A stretch of 64,000 nt of DNA, taken from contig OZ219786.1 in assembly GCA_964291285.2 (NCBI GenBank), positions 128,001-192,000 on the forward strand, in the 5' to 3' direction. Below the pieces are notes generated by a model, which saw nothing but the letters and a program-made list of their open reading frames with translations, searched no databases and had not been told where the DNA came from. The position numbers and the translations under genes are program-made. This DNA is from Alphaproteobacteria bacterium (GTDB lineage Bacteria; Pseudomonadota; Alphaproteobacteria; Bin95). Numbering within the stretch: the first letter of the stretch is position 1; each line of letters starts with the position of its first letter. Of the stretch, positions 1,718 through 49,970 are shown one piece after another.

Positions 1718-1809
1718 CGGGTCGGACCTGCCGGGCGTTGCGCTCCGGTTTCCGTTCCATGCGCTTCCGTCGGGCACGGTCTCGCCGGGCGGCGGGACCC
1801 CCTGCGAAG

Positions 1810-1836
1810 TGTCATGAAGTGTCATGTTCTGTCATG
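1810..1836. repeat. TGTCATG x3 array with 10-bp period (end of dispersed element copy A)
   Basis: GTCATG at 1811, 1821, 1831. Confidence 0.9.
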
Positions 1837-1874
1837 TCCGGGGATGCGCGCGCCTCCCGCCGGCCCCCTTTCCA

Positions 1875-2870
1875 TCATGCCCGGACTCGTTCCTGGCATG
1901 ACGATGTGAGGCCATGGCGGGAAGAGGGCCGGTCCGGCAGGAAGCTGCCGTCGTCGAAGCCGTCCCGCCGGTCCTTACCGTCCTCGTCGAAGGGGTCGTC
2001 GCCGCAGCGCCTCTCTTCCCGTTCGATCCGGTTCCGCCTGCGTTCCTCGACCTCCTCCGGGGCCCAGGGGTCGTAGATGTCGTCGTAGCCGTTGCGGCGC
2101 TGGTAGAGCCAGTCGTGTTCGGCGCTGTCGGCCCGGTCGTCGTCGATCCTGTCCTCGTGGCCGGGCGTGTCGGCGGCGGCCCAGGGGCAGTATTCGTAGG
2201 TCTCCTCGGGCGGGTCGTCGGCCGGCGGCAGGTCGTCCGGGGGCGGTGCGGGCAGCCCGAAGCCGAAGGGCAGGCGGGAGCGCTCCTCGACGGCCGCGGC
2301 GAGCCTGCGGGCGGCCTCCCCGTGCGCGGCCCCGTCGAAACCGTCGCGCGCCTCCATCGCCTCCCGGCAGGCATGGTGGCGTTCGAGCGCGCGTTCGGCC
2401 CGCTCCTGCCCCAGGCGCACGGCTTCGGCGAGCGGCCCCGGCTCGGTGCCGGCTGCGCGCGCCTCGCCCGCTTCGATCTCGCCGAACTCGTCCTCGTGCG
2501 GCATCGGCCAGAGGCGGGCGCGGTTGGCCCCGCCGGGCTTCACCAGGCCGGTAATCTCCGCCTGGAAGCGCAGCACCCGGAGCATGGTGTGGGCCGAGCC
2601 GCTGGCGACGGCGGCGTCCCAGACCTGCTCCAGCCGGGCCAGCAGGATGGCGGCTTCGTCCTTTTCGGTGCGCTTCCACGACAGGCGGATGCGGCGCAGG
2701 CGCTCGACGATGTGAGGGCGCTCCAGCAGGGCGCATCCGGTCTGGCGGGCGGAGCGTTCTGAGTAGCCGGCCCGCCTTGCGGCGTCGGCGGCATTGCCGG
2801 AGACGGCATAGTGGCGGCAGAAGGCCTCCTGACGTGTGGAGAGCGCAATGGCGGGGTCGATGATGGGCAT
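1875..2870 (-). CDS. Protein with N-terminal terminase small subunit-like HTH domain and acidic low-complexity C-terminus
   Basis: RQEAFCRHYAVSGNAADAARRAGYSERSARQTGCALL matches the Terminase_2-type N-terminus (Q.F..EY....NAT.AA..AGYS...A); AAAGGAG upstream of ATG 2870. Confidence 0.7.
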   Translation of the reverse strand: MPIIDPAIALSTRQEAFCRHYAVSGNAADAARRAGYSERSARQTGCALLERPHIVERLRRIRLSWKRTEKDEAAILLARLEQVWDAAVASGSAHTMLRVLRFQAEITGLVKPGGANRARLWPMPHEDEFGEIEAGEARAAGTEPGPLAEAVRLGQERAERALERHHACREAMEARDGFDGAAHGEAARRLAAAVEERSRLPFGFGLPAPPPDDLPPADDPPEETYEYCPWAAADTPGHEDRIDDDRADSAEHDWLYQRRNGYDDIYDPWAPEEVEERRRNRIEREERRCGDDPFDEDGKDRRDGFDDGSFLPDRPSSRHGLTSSCQERVRA

Positions 2871-3127
2871 GGGGCGGCGGCTCCTTTCGTTCCGCTGGCG
2901 TTCGACAAACAAACCCGGCTGCGGTACGGGACCGCGCCGGGCCGGGGGGCGGCGTTGACGGGCAGCACCGCCCCGTCGGGGAGCGACCCTGTTTCGCGCG
3001 TATCGCGTGCGGGCGCGGGCGGGTGTCGGCGCCGGCGCGGTTCGCGCGCCTGATTGCGCGCGCGAGCCGCAGGGCGCACTTCGCCTGTGCGTCGAATCGG
3101 GGTCGTTCCGCGCCGGGCCGGCGCGAA

Positions 3128-3159
3128 GGGAGGCGAAGTCCGCGCGGACTTCGCCTCCC
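3128..3159. repeat. Perfect 32-bp palindrome
   Basis: GGGAGGCGAAGTCCGC|GCGGACTTCGCCTCCC. Confidence 0.9.
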
Positions 3160-3351
3160 CCGGACCTATCTAGGCATAGATTTTCCGGAGGTCAAGTCTT
3201 TTTCAGGAAATGTTTCTGATTTTTTAAACGAACTGAGATTTCAACAACCGGAACACAAGGCAATACCCGTCCCGGCCCTTCCCCGTCATACCCCGTATCG
3301 TCATGCCCGCCAAAGCCGGACCGGGGCGGCGATTGCGGGATTGCACTGCCT

Positions 3352-5860: not shown

Positions 5861-7276
5861 TCACAGAACGCGGATCATGTCCTTCATACCGCTCGCCTGA
5901 TGCCCGAGGACATGGCAATGAAACAGCCAGTCGCCGGGATTGTCAGCAAGGAAAGCGATTTCCACCCGTTCGCGCGGGTCCATCAGCACGGTGTCCCGCC
6001 ATTCCCGGTGCGCCGTCGGCCTGCCGTTGCGCGAAAGCACCCGGAAGGCATGGCCGTGCAGATGCATCGGGTGGTGCCAGGCGGTGGCGTTGGTCATGGC
6101 GATGACGCAGCTCCGGCCGCGCCGGAGCGTCAGCATCGGCTCCGGAACGTCTCCCGAAGGGGGTTCGCCATTGACGAACCAGAACGAGCGCGGGCCGACC
6201 GGGCCCATGCGGCCGCCCATCTCGGCCATGACCGCCCCGCCCATCGCGCCGCCGGTGAACATCATCTCGTGGCGGATGGCGCCCCCGACCTCCGGCTCGG
6301 CCAACGGGTTGGGCGGCAGGCCGACCGGCCAGTCGGGCGGCTCTCCGCGCAGCGGCTCGGCCGTATAGGCGAGGTTGAGCAGGCGGTATTCCCGGTTGCG
6401 GTAGAAGGCGTCCACCACGGGCGTCTTCGCCCCCGGCTCCCCGGCCATATCGAGCACGATGTCGGCGCGCATGCCGGGGCCGAGCACGACCTGGCCGCCC
6501 TCCGGCGCATGGGGCGCGACCGGGTGGCCGTCGAGCGCCACGACCTGCGGACGGTGGCCCTCGAACTGCAAGCCGAAGACCCGCGCGTTCGCGGTGTTGA
6601 CGAGGCGGAGGCGTATGCGCTCGCCCCGATGCACGGCGAACTCTCCCGGACTGGAGCCGTTGACGGTGGCCCAATTGCCGAGGCGCCCGGCATGGCTCAT
6701 GTCGTGGGCGTTCCCGAAGCCGGGGGCAAGCTCCGCTTCCTCAGTCATCCGCCAGTCGTCCAGCACCCAGGTGACATCCCGGTCAACCCGAAGCGCCGGC
6801 TCGCGTTCCTCGACGACCAGCACGCCGTAAAGGCCGCGCGCGACCTGTTCGAGGCTGTTGGCATGCGGATGGTACCAGAAGGTCCCGGCATCCACGGCGT
6901 CGAACTCGTAGGCGAAGGTCCCGCCGGGGCGGACCGGCGGCTGCGTCACGCCGGGCACGCCGTCCATGGCGTTGGGCAGCCTGAGCCCGTGCCAGTGGAT
7001 CGTCGTGTCCTCACCGAGGCCGTTGTCGAGCAGGACCCGCAGCCGGTCTCCCTGGCGCACGCGGATTTCGGGGCCGGGCACGCTGCCGCCGTAACACCAG
7101 ACCGCCGTTTCGCCGTACGGCCCGGAGACGAGGCGGACGGACGCGGGCGCGGCCCGCAGCCGCATTTCCGTCACTCCCGCCGCCCGGACCCGGCCGAAGG
7201 GGACGAGCGCGAACCCCGCTCCCGCCGATGCGAGAAACGCGCGGCGCGTCATCGCTGGCACGGGCAATCCGGACAT
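5861..7276 (-). CDS. Tat-exported multicopper oxidase
   Basis: TRRAFL Tat motif; HWHG, WYHPH, HPMHLHGH, HCHVLGH..GM copper motifs. Confidence 0.93.
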   Translation of the reverse strand: MSGLPVPAMTRRAFLASAGAGFALVPFGRVRAAGVTEMRLRAAPASVRLVSGPYGETAVWCYGGSVPGPEIRVRQGDRLRVLLDNGLGEDTTIHWHGLRLPNAMDGVPGVTQPPVRPGGTFAYEFDAVDAGTFWYHPHANSLEQVARGLYGVLVVEEREPALRVDRDVTWVLDDWRMTEEAELAPGFGNAHDMSHAGRLGNWATVNGSSPGEFAVHRGERIRLRLVNTANARVFGLQFEGHRPQVVALDGHPVAPHAPEGGQVVLGPGMRADIVLDMAGEPGAKTPVVDAFYRNREYRLLNLAYTAEPLRGEPPDWPVGLPPNPLAEPEVGGAIRHEMMFTGGAMGGAVMAEMGGRMGPVGPRSFWFVNGEPPSGDVPEPMLTLRRGRSCVIAMTNATAWHHPMHLHGHAFRVLSRNGRPTAHREWRDTVLMDPRERVEIAFLADNPGDWLFHCHVLGHQASGMKDMIRVL

Positions 7277-7296: not shown

Positions 7297-7373
7297 TGGC
7301 GCGCCCGGCACGACTCGAACGTGCGACCTTCTGCTCCGGAGGCAGACGCTCTATCCGACTGAGCTACGGGCGC
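7297..7373 (-). tRNA. tRNA-Arg(CCG)
   Basis: Reverse complement GCGCCCGTAGCTCAGTCGGATAGAGCGTCTGCCT-CCG-GAGCAGAAGGTCGCACGTTCGAGTCGTGCCGGGCGCGCCA; cloverleaf with encoded CCA. Confidence 0.96.
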
Positions 7374-32694: not shown

Positions 32695-33165
32695 AGGATG
32701 CTTCAAATATGAAAAAAATCTAATTAATCTGATTTTTGTTTCATATTTGATCTTGACATCTGGCGGATTGTGGTATGATGGTCCCCAAGGAAGCGGAATC
32801 CGGAGCCGCGTCCCCGGGTGCCGCGCGGCCGAGCGGCGCCGGTTTCTGAAAACCCGTGAGAAGCCGACGGGAGACGTGCGTCCTGCGTCTCGCGCGCGCA
32901 ATCAGGCGCGCGAACCGCGCCGGCGCCGACACGCGCACAGGCGCCCGCGCAGGATACGCGCGGAAAAGGGACCCGCTCCCCGTCGGAGCAAGGAGGAACG
33001 ATGAAGGCAACCCACCCTCGCCCCGGTCATGTCGAACCGCTGCCCCTTTTTCTCCTCGCACCCGGCAGGAGGTCAAAAAGCGGAGAGCCTTATGCCCGAA
33101 CCGGCTACAGAACATACGCCCCGCGCATGGGAAACATGACAGATCATGACATCCCATGACATACC
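32695..33165 (+). repeat. Dispersed element copy B (short form); boundaries approximate
   Basis: AT-rich end with TTGACA at 32753; core GCGCGCAATCAGGCGCGCGA 32894-32913 and GATACGCGCG 32953-32962; CATGAC at 33135, 33145, 33155. Confidence 0.82.
33001..33159 (+). CDS. Putative 52-aa small ORF within element B
   Basis: AAGGAGGAACG immediately before ATG; ends ..RMGNMTDHDIP* inside the CATGAC array. Confidence 0.3.
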   Translation: MKATHPRPGHVEPLPLFLLAPGRRSKSGEPYARTGYRTYAPRMGNMTDHDIP

Positions 33166-35919: not shown

Positions 35920-35955
35920 CATGACACTTCATGACATCCCATGACACTTCATGAC
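35920..35955. repeat. Solo CATGAC x4 array with 10-bp period
   Basis: CATGAC at 35920, 35930, 35940, 35950. Confidence 0.9.
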
Positions 35956-36033
35956 GCTCCTGCCCTTCCGGCGTTCTCCGGCGCGGGGCATATTGGCCGC
36001 TCCGATTGCCGCTTCCATCAGGAGACCTGAACC

Positions 36034-49359: not shown

Positions 49360-49870
49360 GCGGGCGTGTCATGGGATGTCATGTTTTGTCATGAGGACCG
49401 GCGGGACAGCGTTCGATATGTCATGAGATGTCATGTTCTGCATGCGCACGGCGCATGTCCCGTGGCCGGTTCCGGCATGAGGTAGTCGTTTCGGGCGGGG
49501 TTCCGGGTATTCCATCCCGTTTCCCGGCTTCCGCATCTTCGGCATGCGTTCCTCCTCTCGAACCGTCTTCGTTCCATTCTCTCCGCTGCCCGGTTCCTCC
49601 GTGCGGCGGGACCCTAATTCGCGCGTATCCTGCGCGGGCGCCCGCGCGCGTTTCGCGGCGGCGCGAATCGCGCGCCTGATTGCGCGCACAAGACGCGGGA
49701 CACACTTCTCCTGTCAGCTTCCCGGGTTCTTTTTTTCGCGCCGGCGCGAAACAGGAAAGAGAGCGGCCCCGCGCGGATGCCGCCTCCTTCCTCTGGCCTG
49801 ATCCGGGTATTCTATACTACCTGTCAAGCCCATAGTCAGAATTATTTCAAATCATAAGAACAAGAAATTT
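49360..49870 (-). repeat. Dispersed element copy C (short form); boundaries approximate
   Basis: GTCATG at 49368, 49378, 49388 and 49420, 49430; core 20-mer at 49668-49687; CGCGCGTATC at 49620-49629; AT-rich end with TGTCAAG near 49822. Confidence 0.82.
49369..49545 (-). CDS. Putative 58-aa small ORF within element C
   Basis: GAGGAGGAACGC before ATG; ends ..RMQNMTSHDI..MTKHDIP* inside the CATGAC arrays. Confidence 0.3.
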   Translation of the reverse strand: MPKMRKPGNGMEYPEPRPKRLPHAGTGHGTCAVRMQNMTSHDISNAVPPVLMTKHDIP

Positions 49871-49970
49871 GTATCAGCCGTGCGCCGACTCATGGCCCGA
49901 GGCTCAAGGCCGGCGCCGCCGTTGCATGACGGGGCCGTCGCAGACCGCTTCAACCCCAACAGGTCATGCT

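Follow-up and report, generated by a model that had tools for sequence, protein, structure and literature searches.

A dispersed cassette family with a TerS-like protein and phased CATGACA arrays in an uncultured alphaproteobacterial genus

How does a directional repeat with two unlike ends come to be scattered through a bacterial genome? The question is raised by the window, i.e., the whole stretch of 64,000 nt analysed here (Alphaproteobacteria bacterium, assembly GCA_964291285.2, contig OZ219786.1, positions 128,001 to 192,000), which holds three copies of such a repeat, named A, B and C, one of them encoding a protein that resembles the small subunit of phage terminases (TerS). An initial annotation had regarded them as a dispersed and mobile family with conserved ends and variable cargo, unlike an insertion sequence (IS) or a miniature inverted-repeat transposable element (MITE). 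According to the best-supported interpretation of the present analysis, the family is, or recently was, mobile and its full-length members encode a TerS-type DNA-recognition protein. The more specific reading, an undescribed family of modular mobile cassettes whose ends are marked by the TerS-like protein, has in our judgement about an even chance of being correct. A full-text literature search returned no paper describing the element family.

With A and C taken from the minus strand, all three copies show a common order of parts, in agreement with the layout proposed initially: an AT-rich stretch resembling an UP element, a promoter-like site, a leader of about 215 nt with hairpins, a Shine-Dalgarno sequence, a cargo open reading frame (ORF) and a phased array, which in the family has 2-4 units. 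The 20-mer GCGCGCAATCAGGCGCGCGA is exact in all three copies (three matches in the window against a shuffle mean of 0.11, no shuffle reaching three), GATACGCGCG is invariant among them, and A and B have an identical run of 44 nt in common, as had been noticed before. Likewise, the repeats at a period of 10 bp are real, CATGACA-N3-CATGACA giving 10 matches in the window, a solo array included, and none in 100 shuffles. The parts are as follows.

Window 1810-3245, minus strand: copy A, aligned with B and C in one shared order
3196-3245, minus: AT-rich left end of A (GTTCG ... GAAACATTTC motifs), upstream of the promoter-like site
3167-3195, minus: putative promoter of A, TTGACC, 17 nt, TAGATA (consensus scanner found 0)
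3128-3159, minus: first leader hairpin of A, a perfect 16+16 palindrome
2984-3103, minus: GC-rich leader core of A, invariant 20-mer at 3042-3061 (nhmmer match C2:131103-130984)
1875-2870, minus: TerS-like gene of A, 331 aa, AAAGGAG in front (Pfam Terminase_2, phrog_51, PDB SF6/SPP1-type TerS)
1810-1836, minus: right-end array of A, 3 x CATGACA, 10-nt period
Window 32703-33161, plus strand: copy B, aligned with A and C in one shared order
32703-32752, plus: AT-rich left end of B, start of similarity among 17 near-identical copies
32753-32779, plus: promoter-like site of B, TTGACA, 15 nt, TG-G-TATGAT extended -10 (not called by the 16-18-nt consensus scanner)
32848-32977, plus: leader core of B (nhmmer), 20-mer at 32894-32913
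32990-33091, plus: AAGGAGG and decayed second-cargo remnant (MKATHPRP...), classed as 'cargo2 start only'
33092-33139, plus: 15-codon micro-ORF module of B, TGA inside the first array unit
33135-33161, plus: array of B, 3 units
Window 49367-49875, minus strand: copy C, aligned with A and B in one shared order
49828-49875, minus: AT-rich left end of C (TTGTTC ... GAAATAATTC)
49822-49827, minus: TTGACA of C, -35-like, the -10 being weak in this copy
49606-49733, minus: core of C (nhmmer), 20-mer at 49668-49687
49431-49478, minus: micro-ORF module of C
49367-49435, minus: 2-unit array (49419-49435), spacer and 3-unit array (49367-49393) of C, a 2+3 arrangement common to many copies
35920-35956, plus: solo array, 4 units (last CATGACG), no core upstream, between two same-strand genes, the next same-strand gene following about 80 nt downstream

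The host genome (G000) comprises 6.13 Mb in five contigs with 68% G+C and 32% A+T and is 100% complete; the window lies on contig 2. Iterated nhmmer searches of the whole genome retrieved 98 cores on all five contigs and both strands, and 168 arrays were counted (at least two exact CATGAC units at 9-11-nt spacing), 104 of them with three or more units, so that the high copy number expected from the window was confirmed. The interval between units is exactly 10 nt in 275 of 283 cases, about seven such intervals being expected by chance according to our own arithmetic from the density of 5,198 CATGAC sites. A same-strand array lies no more than 1,148 nt downstream of 84/98 cores and, conversely, 137/168 arrays are tied to a core, the former count showing that the two ends belong together, a co-occurrence that the initial annotation had put up as a test. 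The 3' module is retained in most of the 31 solo arrays, a few being fortuitous pairs within genes. The elements range from 0.35 to 1.5 kb. Convergent flanking genes, described as typical of all three window copies, were checked there for A and turned out not to be the rule genome-wide, where crude gene calls place 28 of the 98 copies in convergent, 24 in divergent and 46 in tandem settings. Among the related genomes, the element-free G003 and G013 have no array pairs and eight element-bearing ones 23-319.

The left boundary is marked by the change from the GC-rich flank to an AT-rich stretch, which starts near TGTTC and often continues with GAAATAATTC, the -35-like hexamer following about 11 nt on. 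The layout TGTTC-N~12-GAAATAATTC-N~11-TTGAC is present in about 33 copies, and in an alternative arrangement TGTTC stands 10-11 nt ahead of the -35. Over the 60 nt upstream of the -35, the median A+T content is 62% compared with 32% for the genome. A -35-like pentamer is in register in 77/93 copies (TTGAC[ACT] in 44), and 59 of those 77 have a -10 that matches TATAAT at four or more of six positions; a 15-nt spacer is found in 42 copies and TG at -15/-14 in 46. The sequence between the hexamers varies by subfamily and the layout remains constant. Judged by its resemblance to TTGACA / TGnTATGAT, the site may be an active promoter.

The leader opens with a hairpin that is variable and another that is made of GC pairs; then come the invariant hairpin CGCGCGC-AAUCAG-GCGCGCG, the GCGCCGGCGC palindrome, the hairpin CGCGC-AGGAUAC-GCGCG and, ahead of the Shine-Dalgarno sequence, a final hairpin. 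The core of the leader is the most conserved part of the element. On 80 copies, 86.1% of the helix cells are paired versus 25-57% with the partners slid, and changes on both sides of a helix amount to 104 cells versus 58 +/- 5.7 after shuffling (0/500 shuffles reach 104), figures that were obtained on related sequences with a structure derived on the same alignment. One-sided changes are often G-U on the sense strand (e.g., CG 33 / UG 27; CG 49 / UG 23), and helix 1 of the family has four pairs with changes on both sides.

At the other end, the parts often follow each other as a 48-nt module, whose 15-codon ORF stops within the first unit, two units, a spacer of about 25 nt and three units. 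The segment 'ATGCC.GAACCGGC...GCGCATG', noted earlier as conserved between B and C, corresponds to this module, which recurs ahead of 33 arrays genome-wide. A coding function of the micro-ORF is not supported, as the codon-position entropy is flat (0.73/0.79/0.81 for the 33 arrays with such an ORF). Three recurrent tails follow the arrays; one of them repeats GGGTCCCGCC, which also follows the core and occurs 8-10 nt after 14/168 arrays and within 25 nt of 16. In its build, the family is a mosaic of modules. A PhoB/OmpR-type reading of the TGTCATG repeats was considered and dropped, since the period is 10 and not 11 nt and no -10 follows. Three CATGACA units at a 10-nt period were further seen in 10 IMG/VR viral contigs of 25-65% G+C, one with two inverted copies near the contig end; as these contigs are unrelated and have neither the core nor either cargo, the arrays in them are read as unrelated tandem repeats.

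A separate observation concerns the 3' edge of the core. A 2,021-bp IS with an IS4/IS1634-like transposase (identified by eye) is present in 44 near-full copies at 99.9-100% identity, e.g., C2:676624-678644, and interrupts 10/98 elements in both orientations. The insertions are mostly located exactly between ...GATACGCGCGAA(T/A) and GGGTCCCGCC, and this precision suggests that the IS has a target preference for the element.

The long form of about 1.45 kb carries a single ORF, which encodes the TerS-like protein, and no transposase, integrase, replication or regulatory gene. In copy A, the 331-aa protein matches Pfam Terminase_2 (E 4.5e-13, residues 11-84, profile positions 2-75 of 141) and phrog_51 (E 5.7e-15), and its residues 10-58 match the DNA-binding domain of SF6/SPP1-type TerS in the PDB (4zc3/2cmp/3zqp). 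The first 85 residues are thus the N-terminal helix-turn-helix (HTH) DNA-binding domain of a small terminase. In the AlphaFold model, residues 11-60 have a pLDDT of at least 90, and the modelled N-terminal domain fits the SF6 DNA-binding domain with a TM score of 0.82 and a root-mean-square deviation (rmsd) of 0.8 A over 50 columns at 42% identity. The C-terminal two thirds, which are long, conserved, helical and acidic, appear unlike known TerS. Foldseek aligned 144 columns of the model with 3zqq_C at an rmsd of 16 A, and a search of the ESM Atlas with the C-terminal part gave scores of 0.84 at most, which is chance level. Ten intact copies of 329-336 aa exist in the genome beside seven partial ones and one with an internal deletion. 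Among the intact paralogues, dN/dS is 0.11-0.53 (45 pairs) at a dS of 0.013-0.40, i.e., purifying selection acts on the protein. In public data there are at least 120 clusters of such proteins at 66-83% identity, the few named ones being annotated as terminase small subunit of uncultured Alphaproteobacteria. The ORF terminates with ...DHD(K/R/I)(T/S) and its stop codon inside the array in eight of the ten copies here, as it does in most of 32 aligned homologues. In copy A, a palindromic unit TCATGCCCGGACTCGTTCCTGGCATGA, similar to a repetitive extragenic palindrome (REP), lies at window 1876-1912 in the 3' end of the ORF and gives the protein a private C-terminus, a stretch of about 60 nt missing from the other nine copies.

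A second cargo of 190-210 aa, starting with MTATDPRP, is present in four full, five partial and 14 start-only copies and has 175 public relatives. It belongs to no Pfam or PHROG family, Foldseek gave no match at E <=0.001, and VIA-align returned generic helical hairpins only (Z <=6.8, residues 1-82), the beta-hairpin repeats being scarcely covered by it. Both the TerS-like protein and the second cargo are native to the family. This bears on the initial proposal that A is the long form and B and C are its deletion derivatives. A is indeed the long form, and TerS-like remnants as would be expected of such derivatives exist elsewhere in the genome. Copy B, however, reads as a decayed member of the second cargo type and not as a derivative of A, because its MKATHPRP... 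remnant matches a gene that is intact (205 aa) at the same site in G012; copy C has no recognisable remnant of either cargo. Genome-wide, 48/98 copies are devoid of recognisable cargo or IS and 8 more hold the IS alone; in most copies an internal deletion has left both ends in place.

The family is confined to one uncultured alphaproteobacterial genus, which is known from sponges and other marine hosts. Of the 16 other genomes of the genus, 13 have core matches, and none was obtained in 24 genomes from beyond the genus, 8 from its family and 16 from its class; the TerS-like protein was found in 12/16 and in 0/20 genomes of the order's two other genera. Among GTDB representatives, the core 20-mer is found in more than 106 places. 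The whole core is present in 67 of the 80 matches listed, 64 of these 67 being labelled only 'MAG: Alphaproteobacteria bacterium' (MAG, metagenome-assembled genome), and the remaining 13 listed are the bare 20-mer in unrelated taxa. One full core (83.8 bits) lies in a contig of a MAG labelled Bryobacterales (L214), which may reflect misbinning and not a transfer to another phylum. A PLSDB megablast with copy A gave no match.

Presence/absence differences at orthologous loci, which had been named beforehand as a check on mobility, were seen. Site A, between fadD and NMT1, is occupied by the TerS-like element in G000 and in G002, which has the closest flank (95%), and is empty in six species (G016, G010, G014, G006, G015 and G008), where the genes are 10-26 nt apart with neither core nor array. 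In G004, a second-cargo element is located there on the opposite strand, and other species have unrelated short inserts. Judging by these alignments, the occupied site A is a lineage-specific insertion, and the opposite-strand insertion in G004 took place independently. Site B is filled in 9/11 other genomes in which both flanks were found; it is vacant (55 nt) in G005, and G003 has an unrelated sequence there. Site C has a core in 9/15 other genomes. Orthologous copies persist across species whose flanks differ by 5-15%. Taken together, the histories of the three sites indicate that new sites are gained rarely and that copies then persist. The fadD/NMT1 interval is also a hot spot for other sequences. 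A distinct MITE-like repeat, about 130 nt long and with GTCACCCCGGCC...GGCCGGGGTGAC as inverted ends, occupies it as well (L049 in G002, L051 in G004, L056 in G012), GTCATGCCCGG units similar to the REP-like unit of copy A are present in G007 and G009, and a short antitoxin-like ORF was recognised by eye in G007, G012 and G011.

In at least two genomes, the copies appear to be kept alike by gene conversion. In the leader tree, which includes paralogues from G000 only, copy B of G000 is nearest to G000 paralogues (distance 0.04-0.07) and not to B of G006 or G007, and B and C of G015 are each other's nearest. Moreover, nine TerS-like copies that are 96-99% alike inside carry four promoter types, and together with the tree this points to gene conversion among copies. 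A possible dependence on the protein is seen in G008, a complete genome with cores and no TerS-like gene, which has 23 adjacent CATGACA pairs compared with 103-319 in seven other element-bearing genomes. This single case hints that the family decays without the TerS-like protein; across genomes, array count and TerS-like gene count show no simple relation.

By analogy with SPP1, we propose the following mechanism. The TerS-like protein, as an oligomer, would recognise the element's own DNA in the way SPP1-type TerS recognises pac; its target would be the phased array into which its stop codon falls, the bendable AT-rich promoter end, or both. Once bound, it would flag the ends for an enzyme of recombination, repair or packaging that is provided in trans and does the cutting or copying, and the deletion derivatives would rely on the full-length copies, of which there are roughly ten.

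Several results weigh against the reading as a mobile cassette family whose ends the protein marks. The binding of the TerS-like protein to the array is a prediction, and the model of the protein is all-helical with low confidence beyond residue 110 and has no enzyme fold. A strict sigma-70 scan (16-18-nt spacer) called 0 promoters in A and B, and promoter function is treated as putative for this reason. The kinship of the leaders and the shared alignment mentioned above temper the hairpin statistics, and in the metatranscriptome X23 (one RNA run, contigs only) the core-to-flank depth ratio is the same as in DNA runs. The searches made here detected neither movement machinery nor a footprint of movement. 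No inverted pair links the two ends in A, B or C, the left-end TGTTC and the right-end CATGACA having only TGT.C in common. Comparison of 5-7-mers right of the array with the left boundary zone in 82 elements gave no target duplication (0-18 observed versus shuffled means of 1.8-23.4); the pair of empty G005 and filled G009 allows a CGGCG repeat, CGGCGC however follows 7 arrays. Convincing paralogous empty sites were not found in the genome, no usable joints were seen in Logan contigs of sequencing runs, and the Y1 transposase (PF01797) has 0 matches in the complete genome, with the control responding in 6/14 genomes. Many of the remaining leaders from sites B and C group by site in the tree, and with paralogues taken from G000 only, concerted evolution is shown for two genomes only. 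Additionally, G009 has 264 array pairs with a TerS-like fragment only, in a 280-contig assembly in which copies may be unassembled. These null results agree with the early assessment that the family is unlike IS or MITEs; its conserved ends and variable cargo, likewise noted early, were confirmed. The early claim of a mobile element stands in part: 'mobile' rests on one clear insertion difference at site A and the independent opposite-strand insertion there, and the mode of movement sketched above is conjectural.

The family resembles several known repeats without coinciding with any of them. Correia repeat-enclosed elements of Neisseria, ERIC, RIME and BIME likewise form about a hundred small intergenic copies with promoter-like sequences, hairpins and a mosaic build within one genus. 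In contrast to them, the family described here has no terminal inverted repeats or target duplication, its copies are oriented with two unlike ends, one a phased 10-nt array, and full-length members carry protein genes. REP/RAYT systems and REPINs are high-copy, GC-rich, intergenic hairpin repeats conserved within a genus, whereas the unit here is ten times longer and directional and the genome has no Y1 transposase gene. Integron cassettes and Xer-site (pdif) modules have variable cargo between conserved boundaries, comparable to GGGTCCCGCC after the core and some arrays; the cassettes here, however, each have their own promoter-like site and are dispersed rather than arrayed, and no attC-like or Xer-like site was recognised.

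Among the competing explanations, a host-domesticated regulon that is no longer mobile fares best, although we consider it unlikely. The TerS-like proteins would then be ordinary transcription factors, the arrays operators or road-blocks 3' of strong promoter cassettes, and the copies would set the expression of their neighbours. The persistence of copies at orthologous sites and the purifying selection on the protein are consistent with this, as are the 57/98 copies that aim at a same-strand downstream gene (crude gene calls) and copy E18, in which an ordinary-looking enzyme-like gene, read by eye, stands between core and array. In the SF6 study, a switch of TerS between transcription and packaging at its own promoter is proposed (PMC4737164). 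Nevertheless, a domesticated regulon does not account for the lineage-specific insertion at site A and the independent opposite-strand insertion at the same spot in G004, and the decaying cargo remnants in 41/98 copies are a better fit to selfish turnover. There is, moreover, no bias to one gene orientation, and the supposed operators are located at the 3' end of the unit and not at the promoter.

Less probable still are dispersed pac-like signals, by which the large terminase of an infecting phage would be recruited by the TerS-like protein and the array or AT-rich end to about 100 host sites. Neighbouring host DNA would be packaged as a result, either as hitch-hiking transduction or as a decoy that spoils phage packaging; the logic of packaging initiation at dispersed sites would be comparable to that of DNA uptake sequences. 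The homology to TerS is genuine for the DNA-binding domain and seems to include the first oligomerisation helices, the N-terminal HTH domain followed by helices being shared with SPP1/SF6 TerS (PDB 3zqq, 2cmp, 4zc3), and the copies are spread over all five contigs. The terS-like gene has phased direct repeats beside it and an AT-rich promoter region in front, similar to SPP1 pac at the TerS protein's own gene (PMC4737164). The repeats here, however, are at the 3' end of the gene, the protein of about 330 aa has the long acidic C-terminal part that appears unlike known TerS, and ten orphan copies per genome are flanked by host genes with no adjacent large terminase or capsid genes. No large terminase of Terminase_3, Terminase_6N or TerL_ATPase (PF04466, PF03237, PF03354) was found in the complete genome, other TerL families not having been searched, and GTA_TIM (PF13547) is absent from all 17 genomes of the genus, with the control responding in Caulobacter. 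The core 20-mer has 0 matches in IMG/VR, and the closest TerS relatives among the viruses there reach 31-35% identity, confined to residues 9-92. Phage satellites of the SaPI/PICI type similarly are chromosomal elements that encode a TerS-like specificity protein beside its presumed recognition site, whereas the element here is at most 1.5 kb long with a single gene, lacks an integrase, replication or regulation module and exists in about 100 copies, most of them without the gene. Finally, pac-like signals leave the arrival of copies at new sites unexplained.

An element acting at the RNA level is very doubtful. Its functional part would be the leader, acting as a small, cis-regulatory or retro-mobile RNA, with the DNA features secondary. 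The core as the most conserved part and the retention of hairpins through G-U and compensatory changes on the sense strand speak for it. Still, the core helices are invariant and hence give no covariation signal, and a single copy folds only modestly better than its shuffles (z-score -1.7). Rfam has no family for the element either, in keeping with the initial annotation: at the gathering threshold, a tRNA at 7300-7373 is the sole match in the window, and at E up to 5 copy B yields three chance-level rows of 10.7-17 bits. The putative promoter and the AT-rich end lie upstream of any transcript and yet are part of the repeated unit, which argues against copying through RNA.

That a known transposase, encoded at another locus of the genome, moves the family as an ordinary MITE, REP or IS derivative is scarcely credible: the copies are numerous, intergenic and often internally deleted and the genome is rich in active IS, as exemplified by the 2,021-bp IS, but the missing inverted repeats and target duplication, the full-length copy without a transposase gene, the lack of a Y1_Tnp/RAYT gene and the fact that the 2,021-bp IS inserts into the element and shares no ends with it oppose this, and no IS with ends matching TGTTC... 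and ...CATGACA was seen.

Apart from the element, the window contains the mentioned tRNA gene (7300-7373, minus strand) and, at 5861-7276 on the minus strand, an ORF that at the DNA level has 68-72% identity to multicopper oxidase genes carried on plasmids by marine Alphaproteobacteria.

To our knowledge, promoter-carrying dispersed repeats have until now been traced to transposase-driven elements. Such repeats can rewire the expression of many genes at once, and here about 100 copies per genome occur across an uncultured genus, with the TerS-like protein and the second cargo as the only family-specific proteins. On the practical side, the repeats break short-read assemblies of genomes of this genus, as is evident from DNA assemblies (Logan contigs) that are broken at the core. 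If the elements acted as pac-like signals, they would constitute a self-marking DNA-packaging system, by which elements and their neighbourhoods would spread through transduction, or a defence that wrecks phage packaging. Should the TerS-like protein drive spread or packaging, it would open up a new route of mobility, either intragenomic or assisted by phages; otherwise, the family would represent a new and large regulon, with a structured leader RNA that is likewise new.

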